A stretch of 64,000 nt of DNA from an uncultured Actinomycetota bacterium. Lineage in GTDB: Bacteria; Actinomycetota; Actinomycetes; JACCUZ01. A model generated the notes under the pieces. That model ran no database searches. It saw only the letters and a list, made by a program, of their open reading frames with translations, and was not told where the DNA came from. Both the position numbers and the translations under genes were made by a program. The stretch lies in the NCBI GenBank assembly GCA_963794995.1, contig CAWCFV010000002.1, positions 2,954,722 to 3,018,721 of the forward strand, in the 5' to 3' direction. Position 1 is the stretch's first letter, and the number at the start of each line of letters is the position of its first letter. Shown here in pieces: positions 7,230 through 21,058 of this stretch.

Positions 7230-9237
7230 GTGTCCGACAGCACCGACCTCCTCGACGCGCCCGAGGCGCGCTCCGGAGACACCTCCGCCGGGGCGCCGAC
7301 CGCAGCCAAGGCGCCGGCCCGCAAGCGCTCCACCGGCCTGTCCGGCATGGTGCTCGCCGAGCTGCAGGGACTCGCCGGCGAGCTGGGCATCAGCGGCACG
7401 GCCAAGATGCGCAAGGGCCAGCTGATCGAAGCCATCCGGGAGCGCCAGGACGGCACCGCCTCCGCCACCCCGCCCAGGGCCCGGGCGGCCAGGGGCTCGT
7501 CGGCAACCTCGACGTCCTCGACGTCAGCGGGCGGCGCGACCTCGGGCGAGGCCGGCGACGAGCAGGCTCCGGCCGGCCGGGCACCGCGCACCCGTCGCGA
7601 GCGCCAGGGGCGCACCGGCCGACCCGGCCGGGACGGCGACGAGCCGCAGCAGCAGGACCGCAGTGCGCCCAGTGAGCCCAGTGAGCGCAGTGACCGCGGT
7701 GAGCGCGGTGGGCGCACCGAGACGCACCGAGAACACCAAGAACACCGAGAACACCGACACCGGCGACGACTCCCCCGACGGCGGCGAGCGACAGGGCGGC
7801 GGGCGCGACCGGGGTGACCGGGGTGACCGTCAGCGTGACCGCGGGCAGCAGCAGTCCGGCGGTGGCGCCCAGAACCGTGGCCAGCAGCAGGCCGCCGCCG
7901 GTCGCACCCAGGGCGGCCAGCCGCCGGCCGGCGAGGACGACGTCGACTCCGGCACCGGCCGCGGTCGCCGCCGGGGCCGCTACCGCGACCGCAACCGCAG
8001 CCGCCGTGGCGGCCGGGACGGTTTCGGGCCGCAGGACACCGGGGACGGCGGCCTGCCCGAGATCACCGAGGACGACGTCCTGGTGCCCGTCGCCGGCATC
8101 CTCGACATCCACGACAACTACGCCTTCGTGCGCACGAGCGGCTACCTGCCCGGCGACAACGACGTCTACGTGTCCCTGGCCCACGTGCGCAAGGCCGGCC
8201 TGCGCAAGGGCGATGCCGTGACCGGCGCCGTGCGCCAGCCGCAGGAGGGCGAGCGCCGGGAGAAGTTCAACGCCCTGGTGCGGCTGGACTCCGTCAACGG
8301 CGCCGACCCCGACAAGGCGCGCGACCGGGTGGAGTTCAGCACCCTCACCCCGCTGTACCCGCAGGACCGGCTCCGGCTCGAGACCGAGCCGGGCATCCTC
8401 ACGACGCGGGTCATCGACCTCGTGGCGCCGATCGGCAAGGGCCAGCGCGGCCTGATCGTGTCGCCCTCGAAGTCCGGCAAGACGATGGTCATGCAGGCCA
8501 TCGCCAACGCCATCTCGACGAACAACCCCGAGGTCCACCTCATGGTCGTGCTCGTCGACGAGCGGCCGGAAGAGGTCACCGACATGCAGCGCGCGGTGAA
8601 GGGCGAGGTCATCGCCTCGACCTTCGACCGGCCCGCCGAGGACCACACGATCGTCGCGGAGCTGTCCATCGAGCGGGCCAAGCGCCTGGTCGAGCTGGGG
8701 CACGACGTCGTCATCCTGCTCGACGGCATCACCCGGCTGGGTCGCGCGTACAACCTCGCGGCCCCGGCGAGCGGCCGGATCCTCTCCGGCGGCGTCGACT
8801 CGACCGCGCTGTACCCGCCGAAGCGGTTCTTCGGCGCGGCACGCAACATCGAGAACGGGGGCTCGCTCACCATCCTCGCGACGGCCCTGGTGGAGACCGG
8901 CTCGCGCATGGACGAGGTGATCTTCGAGGAGTTCAAGGGCACCGGCAACATGGAGCTGAAGCTGGACCGGAAGCTCGCCGACAAGCGGGTCTTCCCGGCC
9001 GTCGACGTCGACGCCTCCGGCACCCGGCGCGAGGACATCCTCATGGGCAAGGACGAGCTCCAGGTCGTCTGGAAGCTCCGCCGGGTGCTGCACGCCCTCG
9101 AGACCGGGCAGGCGCTCGACCTCCTGCTCGACCGGATGAAGAAGACCAGCAGCAACGCCGAGTTCCTCCGCCAGGTGCAGCAGACGATGCCGATGCCGGG
9201 CTCCACCCCCGGTGCCGGGCACGAGGACGACGACTGA
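7230..9237 (+). CDS. rho: transcription termination factor Rho with long low-complexity N-terminal insertion; one indel near 7720-7730
   Basis: N-terminal LAELQGLAGELGISGTAKMRKGQLI (ORF 7230) joins the core in ORF 7663..9237: FVRTSGYLPG, PIGKGQRG, DERPEEVTD, FEEFKGTGN. Confidence 0.95.
7660..7757 (+). repeat. 9-bp coding tandem repeats in the Rho N-terminal insertion
   Basis: cagtgcgcc/cagtgagcc/cagtgagcg/cagtgaccg/cggtgagcg followed by caccgagaa/caccaagaa/caccgagaa. Confidence 0.75.
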
Positions 9238-9551: not shown

Positions 9552-10097
9552 GTGACCCGGCGCAACAGGCTCATGGTGACCCGCGCACGCCGGCGCGGCC
9601 TCGCAGCGTTGGGAGCCGCCGCCCTCGGCCTGCTGGCCCTGGTGGCCGGCGCTCCGGGCGCCCAGGCGGCCGCCCCCGCCGGGTCGATCACGCCGTTCGT
9701 CAGCTGCTACTTCGACAACGGGAACGGCACGTACACCGTCAGCGTCGGGTACACGAGCAGCAACAGCGGCACGGTGAGCATCCCGGTCGGTACGGACAAC
9801 CGGGTCACCTTCGGCGCACAGGACCGCGGCCAGCCGACCTCGTTCGCGCCCGGCGTCCACAGCAACGTGTGGGCACCGACCCTGTCCACCACGGACATCT
9901 ACAACAACGTGAACTGGTCGCTGACCGGCAACACGGTGCGGCTGAGCACCCTGAACCAGTGCTCGATCCGGCCGGTGCCGGCCGGGGGCAACCTGGCCGC
10001 CGAGCTCGCGTTCGGCGCGGTCGTCACGACGGCGGGCGCCCTCGTGATGGGTGAGCGCCGTCGGCGTCGGGTCGCCTCCCCGGGAGGCACCCTGTGA
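9552..10097 (+). CDS. secreted beta-rich protein with C-terminal sorting-signal-like anchor (candidate exosortase substrate 1)
   Basis: AGGAG RBS at 9541; signal peptide ...RARRRGLAALGAAALGLLALVAGAPGAQA; core PFVSCYFDNGNGTYT...DRGQPTSFAPG; ends CSIRPVPAGG + hydrophobic helix + ERRRRR. Confidence 0.8.
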   Translation: MTRRNRLMVTRARRRGLAALGAAALGLLALVAGAPGAQAAAPAGSITPFVSCYFDNGNGTYTVSVGYTSSNSGTVSIPVGTDNRVTFGAQDRGQPTSFAPGVHSNVWAPTLSTTDIYNNVNWSLTGNTVRLSTLNQCSIRPVPAGGNLAAELAFGAVVTTAGALVMGERRRRRVASPGGTL

Positions 10098-10642
10098 CCC
10101 CCGCGCGCCGACCGCTGCGGTGGTTGGCACGCCGCCTGGCGACCGCCGCCGCGGTCGGTGCCGTGCTCGCAGGCGGCGTCGTGGGAGCGGCTCCGGCGTG
10201 GGCGGCGACGATCGACTGCACGCCGATGGGCGACCCGGCCTGCCGGGACCTGGCGCCGGTCGCCGAGTGCGTCTGGGACAACAAGGACGGCACCAAGACG
10301 GCGCTGTGGGGATGGGACAACCCCAGCACCTCCACCCTGCGCATCGACGTCGGCAACAAGAACAAGATGTCACCCGGCGCCGAGGACCAGGGCCAGCCGA
10401 CCCTGTTCCTCCCGGGGCGGACGCGCAACGTGTTCACCACGACGTACACCGGGACGTCCACGACCTGGCGGCTGGGCAACGAGACGGCCACGGCCGGCTC
10501 CGGCACCACCGCCTGCTCGACCAAGCCGGTCTCCCAGATCGGCAGCGTCGGCGTCCTGCTGCTCGCTGTTCTCGTGCTCGTCCTCACCTCGGCGCTCGCG
10601 CTCGTCGCGCGGCCGCGCCGGTCACCTGTGGAGGTCCGATGA
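10094..10642 (+). CDS. paralogous secreted protein with C-terminal sorting-signal-like anchor (candidate exosortase substrate 2)
   Basis: GTGA overlap; signal peptide ending AAPAWA; core PVAECVWDNKDGTKT...DQGQPTLFLPG; ends CSTKPVSQIG + VGVLLLAVLVLVLTSALALVA + RPRR. Confidence 0.82.
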   Translation: MTPARRPLRWLARRLATAAAVGAVLAGGVVGAAPAWAATIDCTPMGDPACRDLAPVAECVWDNKDGTKTALWGWDNPSTSTLRIDVGNKNKMSPGAEDQGQPTLFLPGRTRNVFTTTYTGTSTTWRLGNETATAGSGTTACSTKPVSQIGSVGVLLLAVLVLVLTSALALVARPRRSPVEVR

Positions 10643-11347
10643 AGGTCCTTGCCGTCGGGGCCCACCCCGACGACATCGAGCTCGGCTGCGCGGGGGCACT
10701 CGCGCGCCACGTCGCCGCCGGCGACGAGGTGACGATGCTCGTGCTCACGCCCGGCGAGAGCGGCCCGCAGGGGCTGACCTCGCGGGTCCGCGAGCAGGAG
10801 ACGGCGAGCGCGCTGCTCGGCGTCCCGGCTGATGTGGGGCCCGTTCGACGACGGGATGATCCCGGTGGGCCGTGAGATCGTGACCGTGCTCGACGAGGCG
10901 GTCGCCGTCACCGGTGCCGAGATCATCTACACCCACGCGCCGCACGACACCCACCAGGACCACGTCGCGACCTCGCAGGCAGCTCTCGCGGCGGCGCGGC
11001 GGATGTCCCGGGTCCTGTTCTACCAGTCGCCGTCGACCACGTCCTTCGACCCGACGGTGTTCGTCAACGTCGAGCGCACCCTCGGCGCCAAGCTGGACGC
11101 GCTGCGTGCGCACTGGTCGCAGGTCATGCAGTGCGCGATGGTCGACCTCGAGGCGGTCGAGGTGGGGGCGCGGTTCTGGGGTACCCGGGCCAAGGTCTCC
11201 TACGCCGAGGCGTTCGTGTCGCCCCGCTTCGTCTGGGAGATCGGCTCGCCGACCGACCGGCGCACGCAGCCGCCGGAGGCCGACGCCGAGGAGGCAGGCG
11301 CGAGCGCAGCAACGTCGGCGCCGCTGGTCGGGGGACTGCGGCCGTGA
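10639..11347 (+). CDS. PIG-L/LmbE family N-deacetylase; one indel near 10830
   Basis: MKVLAVGAHPDDIELGCAG (HPDD metal motif), R-x-x-E, THAPHDTHQDH, YAEAF. Confidence 0.88.
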
Positions 11348-12754
11348 CCACGGGGCGGCCCCCGCGTGCCGCCCAGGGCGCGCCGGACACCCATGGTGCG
11401 CACGGGACGGCCGCGCCGTGGACCTTCCTGTACCTGCTGGCCGCGGGAGCCCTGCCTGGTCGCGCTGCTCGGGGTCGACACGGCCATCATCGTCGCGTCG
11501 GTGGCGGTGAACCTGGCCTTCCTGGCCTTCTTCCTGCGGCACGTCTCGTTCGCCGCCGCAGCGGTCCGGTGGGCCCCGAAGGACCTGTACGCGGAGTACG
11601 AGGTCGACCTCGGCTACCGGCCCAACGTGAGCATCCTGGTGGCCTGCCACAACGAGGCGCTGGTGGCCGAGTCCCTGGTGCGCGGGCTGGCGGCCCTGCA
11701 CTACTCGCGGGCCCGGCTCGAGGTCATCCTGGTCGACGACGCGTCCACCGACGGCACGGGCGACCTCCTCGAACGGCTCACCGCAGGCCAGCGGCACATG
11801 CGGGTCCTGCGCCGCCCGCCCGGCTCCGGCGGGGGCAAGTCCGGAGCACTGAACGCCGCCGCCGAGGTGGCCCGTGGCGAGGTCATCGTCATCTTCGACG
11901 CCGACCACATCCCCCGCCGCAACGTGGTGGACCGGCTGGTGCGCCACTTCCAGGACCCCCGGGTGTCGGCGGTCCAGGGGCGCTGCGTCGTGCGCAACTC
12001 GGTGCAGTCCAAGCTGGCCCGCTCGATCGCGATCGACTACTTCTCCGGCTACCTGGTCAACGAGTACGGGCGGCAGGCGCTGTTCGAGCTGCCGGCCTAC
12101 GGCGGGGCGAACTGTGCCGTCCGCACCTCGACGCTTCGCGAGCTCGGCGGCTGGAACACCAACAGCGTCACCGAGGACACCGACCTCACCCTGCGCGTGC
12201 TGCTGCACGGCTACCGGGTGCGCTACGACATCACCGCGGTGGACACCGAGGAGAGCGCGACCACCCTCAAGCGCTTCATCGGCCAGCGGTACCGGTGGGC
12301 CCGCGGGCACCAGCAGGTCTGGCGCGACTACCGCCGCGCCGTGGTCACCGACGCGAAGCTCTCGTTGCCCGAGAAGATCGAGACGATCATGTTCCTGCTC
12401 GTCTACCACGTCCCGGTGCTGTGCACGATCACGCTGCTCATGACCGCGCTCCGGATCGGCGGCGTCGGTCCTCAGGTGAGCCTGTTCGAGCTGCTGCCGC
12501 TGGCGGCGCTGCTGTTCGCCGGCCCGTTCTGCGAGCTCGCCGTCGGGCTGCTCGTCGGGCGCGCGCCGCGCCGGTCGGCCTGGTCGATCGCCTGGATGAC
12601 CCCGATCTTCTTCGTGTTCATGCTGGTGTGCACCCGTGCCTGGTTCGACGGCCTGGCCGGCCGCTCGTACTCCTGGGTCAAGACGGCCCGCTCGTCGTGG
12701 TCCGCCCTGGAGGGCGCCGAGGAGGACCCGCTCGGGCAGGGGGCGGCGGCATGA
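11344..12754 (+). CDS. membrane-embedded processive GT2 glycosyltransferase (cellulose synthase/PgaC-like); one indel near 11455
   Basis: GTGA overlap; N-terminal TM helices; VDDASTD, GKSGALN, FDADH, TEDTD, QRYRW (QxxRW); three C-terminal TM helices and WVKT. Confidence 0.9.
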
Positions 12755-13287
12755 CCGCCCGCCGGGCCACGGTGTTCACGGCCCTGGCGCTGTGCCTGCT
12801 CGTGGCGGTGGGGGGCTTCCACCTGCTCAACGGCGTCGCGCGGGACGCGGAGTCGGCCTTCGTCATGGTGCTGCTCGGCCCCCTCGGGGCGCGCGCGAGC
12901 GTCCTCGGTGACCACATGTTCCAGCTGCTCCCGCCGGACCAGCAGGCCTTCCGGGCGGTCCTCACGCCGTACTGCTCGTCGCTGATCCCCGTCCTCGCCC
13001 TGGCGACCATCGGCTTCTTCATCCTGTCCGGCACCCTGCGGCGGCGGTTGTTGGCCGTCTCGGTGGCAGCGGCGCTGGTGCTGTTCTGCAACGTCCTGCG
13101 GATCGCCGGCTCGCTCTGGATGGGCTACGAGTACGGCGGCACCGCCCTGGTGCTCTTCCACGACTGGGTGGGCACGTTCTTCGCGCTGGTCTACACGATG
13201 GCGGGCTTCTTCCTGATGCTCTTCCTGCTGCTGCCGAGCGCCGTCGACAAGATCCCCCGCGCGGCACGGGTCAGCGACGTCCTCTAA
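12751..13287 (+). CDS. exosortase/archaeosortase family membrane protein (178 aa)
   Basis: ATGA overlap with GT2 stop; about 4 TM helices; family hallmarks LTPYCSS (Cys75), CNVLRI (Asn114-x-x-Arg117), LFHDWVG (His137). Confidence 0.85.
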   Translation: MTARRATVFTALALCLLVAVGGFHLLNGVARDAESAFVMVLLGPLGARASVLGDHMFQLLPPDQQAFRAVLTPYCSSLIPVLALATIGFFILSGTLRRRLLAVSVAAALVLFCNVLRIAGSLWMGYEYGGTALVLFHDWVGTFFALVYTMAGFFLMLFLLLPSAVDKIPRAARVSDVL

Positions 13288-13345
13288 AGCCGCGGCCACA
13301 TTCCTCCGAATGGACCAGTGTGAACCTCACTTCGGCGGCTGACTC

Positions 13346-14834
13346 GTGACCGGGTCCGTGACGACGCTGGTGGCCCTGCTCATCGGGCTCAGCGCGCTGT
13401 TCGTCGCCGTCTCGTGGCGTTTCGTCCGCTTCCTGCGGGTCCGGAGCGGCATCGTGGCCGGACTGCGGCACGAGGACTCGGGGGTCCGCGTCGCCGCGGT
13501 CCTGCAGGCTGCGGAGATCGGGCTCACCTCCACCGCCCCCGTCCTGCTCAAGGCCGTGCGCGCGGAGAGCGACCCGACCGTCCTCGCCGCGGTGGTGCGC
13601 ACTGTCGCGGCCCGGCAGTGGGAGCCCGCCTCGACCAGCGGCATCGTCGAGCTGCGGCTGTGGGCCCGCGCGTACTCCGGCAAGCACCCGGAGGTCCGCG
13701 CCGCCGTCCAGTCGGCCCCCATGCTGCCGGGCGTCGCCGGAGCGCGTGCCCCCGCCCTCGCTGGACCCCCGCCGCGCCGAGGAGTTCCGCACCCGGTCGG
13801 ACCAGGTGCCCCACCCGGTCCCCGTCACTGCCGGCGGGCCCGTCACCGCCGTGAGCACCGTCAGCCCGTGGCTGCCCGCCGACCCCGACCCGCTGCACCC
13901 CACGACGGTCCTGGTGACCGGCGCGGGCGGGCCCGCGGGAGTCGCCGTCATCCGCGCCCTGCAGGCGGCCGGGCACGAGGCGGTGGCCCTCGACGCCGAC
14001 GAGTCGGCGGTGGGTCTGCGCCTCACCGAGCAGTCGCACCTGGTGCCGCGCTTCGACGATCCCAGCTACCTCGCCGCGCTGGTCCGTGCCGCCACCGTGT
14101 CCTCGGCCCAGGCGCTCATCTGCACCGTGGCCGAGGAGTACCCCGCGCTGATCGCCGCCCAGCCGTACCTGGAGGAGTCCGGCGTCCGCACCCTGATGCC
14201 GAGCCGCGAGGCGGTCGAGGCGTGCATCGACAAGTGGGCGTTCGCCTCGGTGATGACCGCGGCCGGGCTGCCGGGACCGGCGACCGGTCTCGGGACCGCC
14301 GAGGGGATCCCCGGCCCGTGGGTCGTCAAGCCCCGGTTCGGGCGCGGCAGCCGCGACGTGCACCTCGTCGCGACCGCGACCCGCCTGCGCTCGGTCCTCG
14401 GCCTGGTGCCGCAGCCGATCGTCCAGACCCAGCTCACCGGCCGTGAGTTCACGGTGGACGCCCTCGTCGACGTCACGGGCACCGTCGTCTCGTCCACGCC
14501 GAGGTGGCGCCACGAGACCAAGGCCGGGATCTCGACCAAGGGAGAGACCTTCGAGGACGAGGAGGTCGCGAACGTCTGCGCCCTCGTGCTCAAGGCGGTC
14601 GACCTCGTCGGGCCGGCGAACGTGCAGGGCTTCGTCGCCGAGGACGGTGGCGTGATGATCCACGAGGTCAACCCGCGGTTCTCCGGCGGCCTGCCGCTCA
14701 CCCTGCACGCCGGCGCCGATGTCGTCGAGGAGTACCTGCGCGCCATCCTCGGCCTGCCGATGCGGCCCGAGCGGCTGGTCGCCCGGCCGGGCGTGCGCAT
14801 GATGCGGCACCTCACCGAGGTGTTCGAGGCGTGA
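13346..14834 (+). CDS. N-terminal TM + HEAT-repeat-like region fused (across an indel near 13745) to an ATP-grasp ligase domain
   Basis: TM LVALLIGLSALFVAVSW; HEAT-like LRHEDSGVRVAAV...ESDPTVLAAV; then VLVTGAGGPAG, CIDKW, VVKPRFGRGSR, EFTVD, HEVNPRFSGG. Confidence 0.78.
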
Positions 14835-16002
14835 CCGGTCCGCTGCGACTGACCGTGGCGGTGGGCACCCGCCCGGAGGTCGTCAAGCTCGCGCCCGTCG
14901 TGGCTGCGTTGCGGGGCGCCGGGCACGCCGTCCGGTGCGTCGGCGACGGGCAGCACACGGACCGGCGGCTCGCCGGCGACCTGTTCGCCGAGCTCGGCTG
15001 CCCCCGGACGAGACCTGGGCGCTGGCCGGCTCCGAGGGGGAGCGGGTCGGGGCGCTGCTGGCGCTCGCCTACCGCGAGCTCGAGGGGCACCGGCCGGACG
15101 CGACCGTGGTCCTGGGCGACACCTACACCGCACCGCTGGTCGCGATGGCCTCGCGCCGGGCAGGCGTCGGCGTCGTGCACGTCGAGGCGGGGCTGCGCTC
15201 GTTCAACGACGTGTCGATGGAGGAGTCCAACCGCCGGATGATGGCCTCGCTCGCGACGCTGCACCTGGCACCCACCGAGCTGGCCCGGAGGTTCCTGCTG
15301 CAGGAGGCGGTCGACCCCTCGCGGGTCCGCGTCGTCGGCAACCCGGTGCTCGACGCCGTCCGCCTCGAGGGGGTGGCGCGGGTGCCGATCGGGCGCCGGG
15401 CCGGGGTCCTGGTCACGGCGCACCGGGCCACCAACGTCGACGACCCCGAGCGGCTCGCCGTGCTGGTCCGGCTCGTCGAACAGCTCGCCGCCCGGCACGG
15501 CGGTGTCGTGTTCCCCGTGCACCCCCGGACGCGGGACCGGCTGGTGACCGCCGGCCTGTGGGAGGGCCTGGCCTCCCTCGCGCACCGTGACGGCGACGGC
15601 AGCCGGGGCGTGCACCTCGTCGAGCCCATGGGCTACGGCGACCTGCTCCGCGCGATGGCAGCCAGCGCGTTCGTCGTCACCGACAGCGGCGGCATCCAGG
15701 AGGAGGCGTCCTACCTGGGCGTCCCGGTCGTGGTCATGCGCACGACGACCCCCCGCTGGGAGGGCGTGCAGTCCGGGGCCGCGGTGCTCACCGGGCTCGA
15801 CGAGGCCCGCGTGCTCGACGCGGCGGCCGGCTTCGCCTCTCCCGCCGAGCTGGCCCGGGTCGCCGCCCTGCCGTGCCCCTACGGCGACGGCCGCACCGCC
15901 GAGCGGGTCGTCGAGGTCCTCGCCGAGCCGGAGGTCGCCGCGCTCCTGCAGCCGCGCGAGCCCCGGCTGGCGGCCGCCCTGCCGGCTCGCGTCCCGTCGT
16001 GA
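14831..16002 (+). CDS. wecB: UDP-N-acetylglucosamine 2-epimerase (non-hydrolysing); one indel near 15000
   Basis: GTRPEVVKLAP, GQH, VLGDT, HVEAGLRS, EESNR, GNPVLD, TAHRATNVD, TDSGGIQEEA, PYGDG. Confidence 0.9.
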
Positions 16003-16769
16003 CGACCGGCGGGGTACCGGTCCACGCGGTCACCGTCGACCTGGACGACACCCTCTACCCGCAGTCGGCCTGGCTGGCCGGGGCCTGGGCTGCCGTCGCG
16101 GACGAGGCCGGCCGGCACGGGCTCGACCCGGTGGCCGTGCACGACGGCCTGCTCGCCGCCTGCGCCGAGGGGTCGGACCGCGGCGGCATCATCGACCGGG
16201 CCCTGGCCGCGGCGGGGCTGCCGCTGCCGCTCGCCACCGCGCTGGTACCCGGCCTCGTCTCGGTCTTCACCGGCCATCGCCCGGCCAGGCTGACCGCCTA
16301 CCCGGGAGCGGTCGAGGCCCTGGCCCGGCTCGCGTCGACCGTCCCCGTGGTCCTAATCACCGACGGCGTCCCCGCCGTCCAGCGCGCCAAGGTCGAGGCG
16401 CTGGGCCTCGGGTCCCTGCTCGCCCACGTGGTCGTGTCCGACGAGCTGGGCGGCCGGCACCTGCGCAAGCCGGACCCCGCGCCGTTCCGGCACGCGCTGG
16501 CGATGCTGGGGGCAGCCCCGGAGCACGTCGTGCACGTCGGCGACCGGCCGGAGAAGGACGTCCGCGGCGCGGCGGCAGCCGGTATGCGCTGCGTGCGGGT
16601 GACCACCGGGGAGTACGCGGCGGTGCCCCCGGAGCAGGAGCGGCCCTGGCGGGTCGCCGGCACGTTCGCGGAGGCCGTCGACCTGCTCGAGCCGCTGCTG
16701 GCCGTCGAGGCCGGACCGGCCGAACGCCCCCTCGCGGCGGGAACAGCCGGCGCCAGCGCTCGGTTGTGA
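15999..16769 (+). CDS. HAD-superfamily hydrolase (phosphatase)
   Basis: GTGA overlap; DLDDTLY motif [19 protein letters not shown] motif IV. Confidence 0.9.
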
Positions 16770-16872: not shown

Positions 16873-17091
16873 GTGAAGGCCGACATCCACCCCGAGTACG
16901 TCGAGACGACCGCCACCTGCACGTGCGGCGCGACGTTCACCACCCGCAGCACCGCGAAGAACGGCGCGATCCACGCCGAGGTCTGCTCGCAGTGCCACCC
17001 CTTCTACACCGGCAAGCAGAAGATCCTCGACACCGGCGGCCGCGTGGCCCGGTTCGAGAAGCGCTTCGGGAAGCAGTCCGGCTCCAAGTAG
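16873..17091 (+). CDS. rpmE: 50S ribosomal protein L31, Zn-binding type A
   Basis: [12 protein letters not shown]...[19 protein letters not shown]. Confidence 0.97.
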
Positions 17092-17099
17092 CTCTCCGG

Positions 17100-17140
17100 C
17101 GGCCCCGGTCCCGCACCCTCGTGGTGCGGGACCGGGGCCG
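17100..17140 (+). terminator. 18-bp perfect stem-loop after rpmE (terminator or mRNA-stabilising hairpin)
   Basis: cggccccggtcccgcacc-ctcgt-ggtgcgggaccggggccg followed by ttgtcgt. Confidence 0.75.
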
Positions 17141-17181
17141 TTGTCGTCGTGTCCGCGGTCCCGCCTCCCGAGGAGCCTGTC

Positions 17182-18255
17182 GTGCTCGAAGCCCCCGCCG
17201 AGATGCTGGCCGAGCACGCCCGGGTGGAGCAGGAGCTCGCCGACCCCGCGGTGCACGGCGACCAGACGCGGGCCCGAGCCCTGGGCAAGCGCTACGCCGA
17301 GCTGACGCCGGTCGTCGACCTCCACCGTGAGCTGCAGGCGCTGGCGGGTGACCTGGCGGCCGCCCGCGAGCTGGGGGCCGACGACGCGTCGTTCGCGGCC
17401 GAGGTGCCGCAGATGGAGCAGCGCCAGGAGGAGCTCGAGGCCCGGCTGCAGGCCCTGCTGCTGCCGCGCGACCCGAACGACGACAAGGACGTCATCGTCG
17501 AGATCAAGGCCGGCGAGGGCGGCGAGGAGTCGGCGCTGTTCGCCGGGGACCTGCTGCGGATGTACCTGCGCTACGCCGAGCGCGTCGGCTGGCGCACCGA
17601 GGTGATCGAGGCGACCGAGACCGACATGGGCGGGTACAAGGACGTCCAGCTCGCGGTGAAGTCGCGCGGCACGCCCGAGCCCGGCCAGGGGGTCTGGGCG
17701 CGGCTGAAGTACGAGGGCGGCGTGCACCGCGTCCAGCGTGTGCCGGTGACCGAGTCGCAGGGCCGCATCCACACCAGCGCGGCCGGTGTCCTGGTGCTGC
17801 CGGAGGCGGAGGAGGTCGACGTGGAGATCGACCCCAACGACCTGCGGATCGACGTCTACCGGTCGTCCGGTCCCGGCGGCCAGAGCGTCAACACGACCGA
17901 CTCCGCCGTCCGCATCACCCACGTCCCCACGGGGATCGTCGCCTCGTGCCAGAACGAGAAGTCCCAGCTGCAGAACCGCGAGCAGGCGATGCGCATCCTG
18001 CGGGCGCGCTTGCTGGCGGCGGCCCAGGAGGCGGCCGACCAGGAGGCCTCGGACGCCCGCCGGTCGCAGGTGCGCACGGTCGACCGGTCCGAGCGGGTGC
18101 GGACGTACAACTACCCGGAGAACCGGATCGCCGACCACCGGGTCAACTACAAGTCGCACAACCTGGACCAGGTGCTGGACGGCGACCTGGGCGACGTCGT
18201 CCAGGCGCTCGTCGACGCCGACACCCAGGCCAAGCTGGCCGCCGCCGGGCAGTGA
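17182..18255 (+). CDS. prfA: peptide chain release factor 1
   Basis: [26 protein letters not shown] (GGQ), RTYNYP; GTG start behind GAGGAG. Confidence 0.96.
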
Positions 18256-19106: not shown

Positions 19107-19774
19107 TGGGCTGGATCAGGCGGTACGACATGGCCGAGCCCGCCGAGCGCCCGGTGGGCCTCGACCTGGCGAGCGACGCCGTCCGGCGGGGCGAGCTGGT
19201 CGTGCTGCCGACGGACACGGTCTACGGGCTGGGCACCGACGCGTTCTCGCCCGAGGCGGTCGCCCGGCTGCTCGGCGCCAAGGGCCGCGGCCGGGACATG
19301 CCGGTGCCGGTGCTGGTCGGCTCACCGCGCACGCTCGACGGCATCGCGACCGGGCTCACCCAGCAGGCCCGCGACCTGGTCGAGGCGTTCTGGCCGGGCG
19401 GGCTGACCCTGGTGACCACGGCCCAGCCCTCGCTGCAGTGGGACCTCGGCGACACCGGCGGGACGGTCGCCGTCCGGATGCCGCTGCACCCGGTGGCCCT
19501 CGAGCTGCTCCGGTCCACCGGCCCGATGGGCGTCAGCAGCGCGAACCTGTCCGGCCGCCCGGCCCCGAGCACCTGCGACCAGGCCGTCGACCAGCTCGGC
19601 GAGGCGGTCTCGGTCTACCTCGACGGCGGTCCGTCCGGCGAGCCGGTGGCCTCGACGATCGTCGACGTCACCGGTGCCGCACCGCGGGTGCAGCGGCTCG
19701 GTGCCGTGTCGATCGAGGTGCTCCGCGAGGTCGTGCCCGACCTGGATCCCGGGGACTACGGTGACTCGTCATGA
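19106..19774 (+). CDS. tsaC: L-threonylcarbamoyladenylate synthase (Sua5/YrdC)
   Basis: [32 protein letters not shown]. Confidence 0.93.
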
Positions 19775-21058
19775 GCGGTGGGCCGACCTTCTGGGGACCG
19801 GACTTCGCCGCGCTCCAGGAGCAGGACCCCGAGATCGCCTCGGTGGTGACCGGCGAGCTGGACCGGCTGCGCGGGGGTCTCCAGCTGATCGCGAGCGAGA
19901 ACTTCACCTCGCCCGCCGTGCTGGCCGCGCTCGGCTCGACCCTGTCCAACAAGTACGCCGAGGGCTACCCGGGCCGGCGTTACTACGGCGGCTGCGAGCA
20001 GGTCGACCGGGCCGAGGAGATCGGGATCGAGCGGGCCAGGCGGCTCTTCGCGCCGGACGGTGGCCAGGTGCACGTCAACCTCCAGCCGCACTCGGGCGCG
20101 AGTGCCAACCTCGCGGCCTACGCGGCTCTGCTGCAGCCGGGCGACACCGTGCTCGCGATGTCGCTGCCGCACGGCGGTCACCTCACCCACGGCGCGAAGG
20201 TCAGCTTCTCGGGCACGTGGTTCACGCCGGTGCCCTACACGGTGCGGCGCGACACCGAGCTGATCGACTACGACGAGGTGCGCGACCTGGCGCTCCGGCA
20301 CCGGCCGCAGATGATCATCGCCGGTGCGACGGCCTATCCCCGGCTGATCGACTTCGCCCGCTTCCGCGACATCGCGGACGAGGTGGGCGCCTGGCTGATG
20401 GTCGACGCCGCCCACTTCGTCGGCCTGGTCGCCGGGGGAGCGGTCCCCTCGCCCGTCCCGTACGCCGACGTCGTCACCTTCACGACCCACAAGGTCCTGC
20501 GGGGCCCGCGCGGCGGCATGATCGTGTGCCGGCCCGCCCTGGCGGCCAGGATCGACAAGGCGGTCTTCCCGTTCCTGCAGGGTGGCCCGCTGATGCACGC
20601 GGTGGCGGCCAAGGCGGTGGCACTGGGGGAGTGCCTCCAGCCGGCCTACCGCGACTACGCCCGGCAGGTCGTCGCGAACGCGCAGGCGTTGAGCCGAGGG
20701 CCTGGCGGGTGAGGGCATGCGTCCGGTCTCCGGCGGCACCGACACCCACCTCGCGCTGCTCGACCTCCAGTCCCTCGGCGTCACGGGCGCCGAGGCCGAG
20801 CGACGCTGCGACGCCGCGCGGATCACCCTGAACAAGAACGCGATCCCCTACGACCCGCAGAAGCCGATGGTGGCCTCCGGGATCCGCGTCGGGACTCCCG
20901 CGGTGACGACCCAGGGGATGACCGAGACCGCCATGAAGGACGTCGCGTCCCTGATCGGCCGCGCGGTACGCGACGACGACGGGTCGGCGGCGGCCGAGCT
21001 GGCCGAGTCGGTGGGCGCCCTCGTGGCCGCCCACCCGGCCTACCCCGAGCCGGCCTGA
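19771..21058 (+). CDS. glyA: serine hydroxymethyltransferase; indel near 20700
   Basis: [42 protein letters not shown]; C-terminal half SGGTDTHL...[12 protein letters not shown] in ORF 20717. Confidence 0.94.

Follow-up and report, generated by a model that had tools for sequence, protein, structure and literature searches.

A mini-exosortase with two candidate immunoglobulin-like substrates in a conserved actinobacterial gene cassette

The exosortase locus

The window analysed here is a stretch of 64,000 nucleotides from an uncultured Actinomycetota bacterium (contig CAWCFV010000002.1, positions 2,954,722 to 3,018,721), and our subject is a gene within it for a 178-residue protein of the exosortase/archaeosortase family, together with two upstream genes for its candidate substrates and the conserved gene cassette in which it lies (Table 1). 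A preliminary description, made from the letters of the DNA, had placed a 178-residue protein with three short motifs in the tail of a longer open reading frame (ORF), and the translation agrees: TPYCSS puts Cys75 at TGC 12973-12975, CNVLRI puts Arg117 at CGG 13099-13101 (13090-13101 with Asn114), and FHDWVG puts His137 at CAC 13159-13161 (13159-13164 with Asp138). The gene had been called hidden, which is right for a track of longest ORFs, where the exosortase forms the last quarter of a mechanical ORF of 718 amino acids (11131-13287), but not for public annotation; many of the 156 homologues found, of 57-79% identity and 177-178 residues, already carry the name 'exosortase/archaeosortase family protein' from JGI and NCBI.

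In the exosortase frame, the third-position GC content reaches 0.97-0.98 only from about 12780 to 13260, and 5' of there the frame of the family-2 glycosyltransferase (GT2) gene carries the signal. The exosortase ATG and the TGA that ends the GT2 gene share bases as ATGA, and the resulting M-x-x-R-R start is common to 22 of 24 aligned homologues; one of the other two is longer and one is cut. The possibility that 12751-13287 is not a gene is ruled out by the third-position GC signal, the matches to hidden Markov models (HMMs) and the homologues. Short-read contigs from soil-metagenome runs span 12797-13196 and differ from the assembly only at 12857 (C>A) and 12858 (C>G), both in one contig; because of this coverage, the codons for Cys75, Arg117 and His137 have been seen independently.

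Table 1 Features of the exosortase locus, with positions in the window.
Feature	Position	Strand	Evidence
Mini-exosortase, 178 amino acids, four predicted transmembrane helices	12751..13287	+	HMMs over cut-off, third-position GC frame, conservation, model, short-read contigs
Candidate substrate A, 174 amino acids; signal peptide, immunoglobulin-like beta-sandwich, C-terminal sorting tail	9573..10097	+	Homologues by the exosortase in related loci, alignment, model, complex prediction
Sorting tail of A: C-SIRPVPAGGN, hydrophobic helix, RRRRR	9960..10094	+	Motif over 70 tails, tail HMM
Candidate substrate B, 182 amino acids, paralogue of A	10094..10642	+	ORF, homologues, alignment
Sorting tail of B: C-STKPVSQIGS, hydrophobic helix, RPRR	10514..10639	+	Motif over 70 tails, tail HMM
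PIG-L-family de-N-acetylase, in two frames in the window, break at about 10822	10639..11347	+	HMMs, related loci, short-read contig
GT2, synthase-like, C-terminal membrane helices	11366..12754	+	PF13641, 93.5 bits
Membrane-anchored HEAT-like domain plus ATP-grasp ligase, in two frames, break at about 13735-13750	13346..14834	+	HMMs; one gene in relatives
UDP-N-acetylglucosamine 2-epimerase (WecB-like), start not fixed, N-terminal part in another frame, break at about 15000	14831..16002	+	PF02350, 268 bits
HAD-family hydrolase, last cassette gene	15999..16769	+	PF00702, 78.3 bits

In the candidate substrates A and B, the mature domain spans about 90-100 residues and contains two cysteines that are invariant in the family, Cys45 and Cys130 in A. 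Their genes are closely packed: the GTG start of B overlaps the stop of A, and the stop of B overlaps the start of the PIG-L gene. Both proteins end in a tripartite tail, built of a motif of the form Cys-x3-4-[LVM]-P-x-x-G-N, a hydrophobic helix and an Arg cluster, with no spacer between motif and helix. Across 70 such tails, the Cys is present in all 70 and is followed by 3-4 residues, a variable residue (P, E, Q or V), Leu, Val or Met (69/70), Pro (60/70), any residue, one of D, E, V, I or L, Gly (61/70), Asn (53/70) and Gly (47/70), after which come some 20 hydrophobic residues and the Arg cluster. When an HMM of the tail was run on the source genome, A (35 bits) and B (38 bits) were the sole real matches; the next reached 15 bits and was not C-terminal. 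A system of this kind holds between one and four candidate substrates, which lie adjacent and have about 130 residues when mature; there are one to three tail-bearing ORFs per locus and up to four matches per genome.

We ran Pfam and NCBIfam on A, B and 56 members of their family, and no model was matched by more than four members or at an E-value better than 0.0025; the substrate family and its tail are covered by no Pfam or NCBIfam model. Its public names are 'hypothetical protein' and, for one UniRef record, 'LPXTG cell wall anchor domain-contain...'. The structural model of A has a predicted local distance difference test score (pLDDT) of 86.8; a Foldseek search returned nothing at an E-value of 1e-3 or better, and the best Z in VIA-align was 6.0, with immunoglobulin-like (Ig-like) domains of transglutaminase, those of GH2 enzymes and CsgC tied. 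The predicted fold thus appears to be a generic Ig-like beta-sandwich that gives no lead to function.

The order of the cassette (GT2, exosortase, HEAT, ATP-grasp, WecB, HAD) is fixed, on one strand and with near-constant spacing, in a set of 79 related loci. GT2 was found in 78 of them, HEAT in all 79, and ATP-grasp, WecB and HAD in 77 each; PIG-L, found in 72, travels with the substrate genes. The GT2 gene sits 0.7-2.0 kb upstream of the exosortase, mostly at about 1 kb (78/79 loci). The GT2 of the window scores 133.9 bits against the PgaC/IcaA model TIGR03937, below the cut-off of 422.3, and is related to that group without being an equivalog; the WecB-like protein scores 205.8 bits against TIGR00236, under its cut-off of 210.15.

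Fusions are frequent among these genes. HEAT and ATP-grasp form one gene in the close clade, and the homologue at one related locus (L017) is a single ORF of 488 amino acids with ATP-grasp domains. Exosortase and HEAT share one open frame at 51 loci, and exosortase, HEAT and ATP-grasp do so at nine; in five long representatives, the exosortase is N-terminal and the ATP-grasp domain C-terminal. The recurrence of such fusions suggests that the exosortase and the HEAT/ATP-grasp protein function jointly.

Family placement and predicted structure of the enzyme

The window protein scores above the curated cut-offs of both general models of the family, reaching 26.5 bits (E 5e-6; cut-off 25.7) with Pfam PF09721, Exosortase_EpsH, and 39.5 bits (E 5.3e-10; cut-off 23) with NCBIfam TIGR04178, which bears out the assignment to the exosortase/archaeosortase family that had been made from the motifs. 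Nothing else in the 3.55-Mb source genome matches TIGR04178, and in an alignment of the wider family the same model is matched by 89 of 90 relatives. The PF09721 match covers positions 170-252 of a model of 254 positions, that is, only the C-terminal catalytic core in its last third. The best-scoring named models are those of mini-exosortases of roughly 150-170 residues: XrtS (NF033767) gives 41.1 bits against a cut-off of 145 and aligns over positions 3-153 of 155, XrtR (NF012138) gives 22.6 bits against 150, and XrtX (NF046081) gives 20.5 against 170. Together with the core-only PF09721 match, these scores agree with the earlier placement among the short variants rather than with the EpsH/XrtA enzymes of eight transmembrane helices. 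Indeed, the XrtA/EpsH models (TIGR03109, TIGR02602) do not describe this protein, which scores 9.6 bits against the XrtA cut-off of 208 and has only four helices.

Membership in a named subfamily was looked for more widely. None of the cut-offs of XrtR, XrtX, XrtP, XrtK, XrtM, XrtF, XrtD, ArtC and ArtE (55-400 bits) was reached by the window protein, all scores being 22.6 bits or less. The best E-value of the XrtS model among the 90 family members, 9.5e-15, is still far from its cut-off, and in a class-level sample of 151 evenly drawn genomes no genome (0/151) has a protein above 145 bits. Judged by these profile comparisons, the window protein belongs to the exosortase/archaeosortase family but to none of the named Xrt or Art subfamilies.

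An exhaustive search of 1.84 billion representative sequences returned 220 clusters at E-values up to 1e-3. Carriers of the subfamily are Sporichthyaceae-like, Acidothermaceae, Frankiaceae, Geodermatophilaceae and some Acidimicrobiia genomes, and include cultured strains of Geodermatophilus, Modestobacter, Blastococcus and Klenkia. The hosts are single-membrane actinobacteria. In the literature open to searching, which excluded subscription journals and supplements, we met no account of this subfamily, though an earlier one may exist.

The residues expected of an active enzyme are strongly conserved. Among the 90 relatives, Cys75 is kept in 88, Asn114 in 89, Arg117 and His137 in all 90, and Asp138 in 82; the ordered signature of Cys, N-x-x-R and H-D on which the preliminary description relied is borne out. 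Cys75, Asn114, Arg117 and His137 are invariant in 24 close homologues. Two further residues are kept across the wider set, Glu34 (90/90) and Arg31 (82/90).

The AlphaFold2 model of the enzyme (pLDDT 94.3, predicted template modelling score 0.86) has helices at residues 2-41, 78-91, 96-128 and 130-160, while residues 49-70 form a small beta-sheet. A hydropathy scan likewise gives four hydrophobic helices, and the two methods agree with the figure of about four transmembrane helices proposed at the outset. The protein has Arg clusters at residues 4-5, 96-99 and 170-173. If these clusters are cytoplasmic, Cys75 would lie where helix 2 begins on the outer side, and Arg117 and His137 where helices 3 and 4 reach that side, so that the presumed triad would lie near the outer face of the membrane.

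Comparisons with solved structures yielded little. The enzyme model had no Foldseek match in the PDB at an E-value of 1e-3 or better, the family profile had no match (0) among PDB sequences at E-values up to 1, and a wide VIA-align comparison gave generic helical matches with a best Z of 7.7. Taken with the conservation of the catalytic residues, the sequence evidence points to a genuine and probably active four-helix exosortase.

The enzyme ends in a cytoplasmic tail, PRAARVSDVL (residues 169-178, 13255-13284), that is near-invariant in the 24 close homologues, which have the unfused 178-residue form. It may serve to dock the HEAT-ATP-grasp protein.

Association and predicted binding of the candidate substrates

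Of the 79 related loci, 65 encode a homologue of A or B no more than 7 kb from the exosortase. In the close clade it lies 2-3 kb upstream, and in Geodermatophilaceae it lies about 4 kb downstream. At least one ORF that ends in the sorting tail is present in 64 of the 79. Fourteen loci have no neighbouring homologue; five of these were checked genome-wide, and all five genomes hold a homologue elsewhere.

We also compared presence and absence across whole genomes, using an order-level sample of 39 genomes beside the class sample (G042 and G017 of the order sample and G073 of the class sample are unpublished). In the order sample, a strong exosortase is present in 19 of the 39 genomes and the substrate family in 18, all of them within those 19, and the family is found in none of the other 20. 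The exception is G039, in which the exosortase lies 1.5 kb from a contig end and the substrate family was not seen. In the class sample, the substrate is present in all 15 strongly exosortase-positive genomes, and there are five further substrate matches elsewhere. In G067 and G073, the substrate lies directly beside a divergent TIGR04178-positive gene; one match in this sample is weak and covers only the N-terminal part of the profile, and the other two are those of G104 and G091 described below.

Five of the other 20 genomes in the order sample (G012, G016, G017, G027 and G033) have weak matches to the exosortase profile, of 35-43 bits, and no gene of the substrate family. These genomes presumably carry a different exosortase subfamily.

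When the exosortase was modelled together with residues 36-174 of A, the complex scored 0.68, and the best of three controls scored 0.01; in the calibration of this score, 58 of 80 solved complexes reach the mark, as do 2 of 110 mismatched pairs. Agreement between runs extends to at least 87% of contacts, and the pLDDT of the partner is at least 89. The predicted interface joins enzyme residues 60-75 (with Cys75), 118, 121 and 137-139 (with His137) to the substrate motif at residues 130-140 and the start of the tail helix. That Cys75, residues 118 and 121 and the stretch His137-Trp139 all line this interface is indirect support for a spatial clustering of the triad. No like complex has been solved, so the pass does not come from a memorised structure. 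The prediction supports binding of A by the exosortase, without proving it.

Proposed system, related systems and genomic setting

We consider it likely that the exosortase is the processing enzyme of a dedicated system whose substrates are the two upstream Ig-like proteins with the tripartite tail. On this proposal, the signal peptides would direct the export of A and B, and the tail helix would keep each of them bound to the membrane. The motif would then dock in a groove between the Cys75-bearing loop at residues 60-75 and the parts of helices 3 and 4 on the outer side, where Arg117 and His137 lie. Cys75 would attack the motif, assisted by Arg117 and His137, and the tail helix and Arg cluster would be removed. 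The protein would finally be handed to an acceptor, most likely on or near an amino-sugar polymer made by the presumably co-transcribed GT2, WecB, PIG-L, ATP-grasp and HAD genes; the acceptor could perhaps be a de-N-acetylated amino sugar of that polymer. Computational support extends only to the export, retention and docking steps; cleavage, the cleavage site, transfer rather than hydrolysis, and the acceptor we infer from ArtA and the family at large (10.1101/2023.06.07.544157).

Several points weigh against this proposal. Of the 14 loci that lack a homologue nearby, the genome-wide check covered five, and several of the other nine are short contigs. One genome (G104, 78% complete) has a substrate-like gene but no exosortase that could be found, and another (G091, contigs C103 and C117) has tandem copies of the Ig-like domain without a tail and no TIGR04178 match. 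The counts of loci and genomes overstate the support, because related genomes are not independent. The complex score was calibrated with alignments other than ours, and a pair of membrane proteins could easily be packed together. A face of the Ig-like domain (residues 44-57, 96-101) belongs to the predicted interface as well, which would equally fit a stable partner rather than a substrate. Finally, the PIG-L, HEAT-ATP-grasp and WecB genes each read in two frames, as judged against intact homologues.

The broad Ig-like contact, which is large, reaches the beta-hairpin of the enzyme at residues 58-70 and extends beyond the motif, would suit a different role for A and B, as stable, uncleaved bitopic subunits of a complex for polysaccharide synthesis and export that would also include the GT2, with the exosortase-like protein as a scaffold or acting on some other substrate; the gene order and the overlapping stops and starts would likewise fit a stoichiometric complex. 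We regard this as improbable, given that 88-90 of 90 relatives retain the catalytic Cys, Arg and His, residues for which a scaffold would have no use, and that the modelled motif contacts Cys75 and His137. In addition, the motif abuts the helix and is followed by an Arg cluster, as in the exosortase-type signals described in the Haft 2023 preprint (10.1101/2023.06.07.544157).

The frame breaks could also mean that the cassette is decaying and that the intact exosortase is a remnant without function. Three breaks fall within 7 kb: in the PIG-L gene at 10815-10832, in the HEAT-ATP-grasp gene at 13735-13750, which has no read cover in the region where reads were sought (10600-13800), and in the WecB-type gene at about 14995-15005, beyond that comparison. 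Of the 72 related loci with PIG-L, 66 have it as a single ORF. A short-read contig (run X1, 10678-10872, one contig, depth 2.54) is one base shorter at 10822, without the extra base of the assembly, and restores the window's PIG-L gene to a single frame. The housekeeping gene glyA (serine hydroxymethyltransferase, 19771-21058) is split near 20710, with positions 1-313 and 324-399 of the Pfam SHMT model in separate ORFs, and the sole sortase match of the genome (G000:C2:2071499-2071892), about 0.9 Mb from the cassette, is likewise split over two frames. Because glyA and the sortase gene show the same kind of split, and because of the contig at 10822, indels in the assembly are likelier than real breaks. 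The exosortase, the GT2 and both substrate genes are intact, with strong third-position GC, and we find decay of the cassette highly improbable.

Finally, it is barely plausible that the tails are variant LPXTG signals for the genome's sortase, leaving the exosortase with no protein substrate here or with an unrecognised one: [LVM]-P-x-x-G does resemble LPXTG in outline, the LPXTG model TIGR01167 is weakly matched by 3 of 56 family members (best E 0.045), one UniRef record bears an LPXTG anchor name, and the genome has a sortase gene, but none of the 70 tails has Thr as the fourth residue of the motif, so that, with TIGR01167 matches this weak, A and B do not qualify as LPXTG substrates, the motif abuts the helix without a spacer, the sortase gene is distant, the tail family tracks the exosortase by adjacency and by presence and absence, and the docking prediction passes its controls.

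The proposal of a dedicated exosortase system can be extended to the acceptor. In the more specific form, the exosortase, coupled or fused to the HEAT/ATP-grasp protein, would ligate A and B covalently to an amino-sugar polymer or glycolipid built by the cassette. We think this form unlikely as stated. If it were true, it would amount to protein-to-glycan anchoring in single-membrane actinobacteria, parallel to that by sortases and unrelated to it, and would reveal the long-sought acceptor of exosortase transpeptidation. To our knowledge, that acceptor is not known. According to the Haft 2023 preprint, it is still unclear whether exosortases act as one-step transpeptidases (10.1101/2023.06.07.544157).

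The closest known relatives are the named mini-exosortases (XrtS, XrtR and XrtX, and also XrtK, XrtM, XrtP and ArtE), which are similar in size to the window enzyme (about 150-180 residues) and share its catalytic core of roughly four helices and the order of its Cys, N-x-x-R and H-D residues. They differ in that its scores lie far under their cut-offs, and in that the window subfamily has its own tail motif and a HEAT/ATP-grasp partner. The XrtA/PEP-CTERM system of Gram-negative bacteria resembles ours in having a family enzyme in a polysaccharide locus and a tripartite signal with a motif that abuts the helix (10.1101/2023.06.07.544157). In contrast to PEP-CTERM, with its P-E-P, the window motif is [LVM]-P-x-x-G-N after an invariant Cys, and there are only two substrates, both adjacent; the XrtA models are also about twice as long as the window enzyme.

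For ArtA and PGF-CTERM in Haloferax volcanii, the same preprint reports that removal of the C-terminal helix and attachment of lipid have been shown experimentally (10.1101/2023.06.07.544157). ArtA belongs to the same enzyme family, with the presumed Cys-Arg-His triad, but is archaeal and larger and recognises another motif, and the archaeosortase models score 19 bits or less on the window protein. Sortase and LPXTG, as a pair, share with our system a C-terminal motif, helix and basic tail, a Cys-Arg-His enzyme and the L-P-x-x-G outline; the enzyme fold is unrelated, and the aligned tails have neither the Thr at position 4 nor the spacer before the helix. XrtG and its partner GT2 (TIGR03110/TIGR03111) offer a precedent for a small exosortase paired with a GT2 in single-membrane bacteria. 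TIGR03110 is weakly matched by 15 of the 90 family members, and TIGR03111 finds the window GT2 with a low score (55.9 bits, cut-off 363.95), but the scores against both models are far below the cut-offs, and the window protein itself has no XrtG match at E-values up to 1.

The enzyme alone is an already-annotated member of a known family; what is new is its candidate substrates, their tail motif, the accessory cassette and the ATP-grasp fusions. With an enzyme of 178 residues, few and adjacent substrates, six fixed accessory genes and cultured carriers, the subfamily is a compact test bed for asking what exosortases attach their substrates to, and the ATP-grasp fusion is a concrete lead to the acceptor chemistry. 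Family models for the enzyme and for the C-terminal domain would replace 'hypothetical protein' in annotation and give the enzyme a subfamily name.

In the window, the cassette lies between rho (7663-9237) and rpmE-prfA (16873-18255). About 19-21 of the 79 related loci have these flanks too, and every one of them belongs to the close clade; the cassette of Geodermatophilaceae is located elsewhere. The cassette core also occurs outside Actinomycetes, in an Acidobacteria metagenome-assembled genome (L080) and in four from Acidimicrobiia (L026, L028, L057 and L076). L080 has neither PIG-L nor a tail-bearing homologue within its contig, L026 has only a weak tail-like ORF, and L028 has a weak homologue; L057 and L076 carry PIG-L and a tail-bearing substrate homologue as well. 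The presence of the cassette outside Actinomycetes may reflect transfer or binning.

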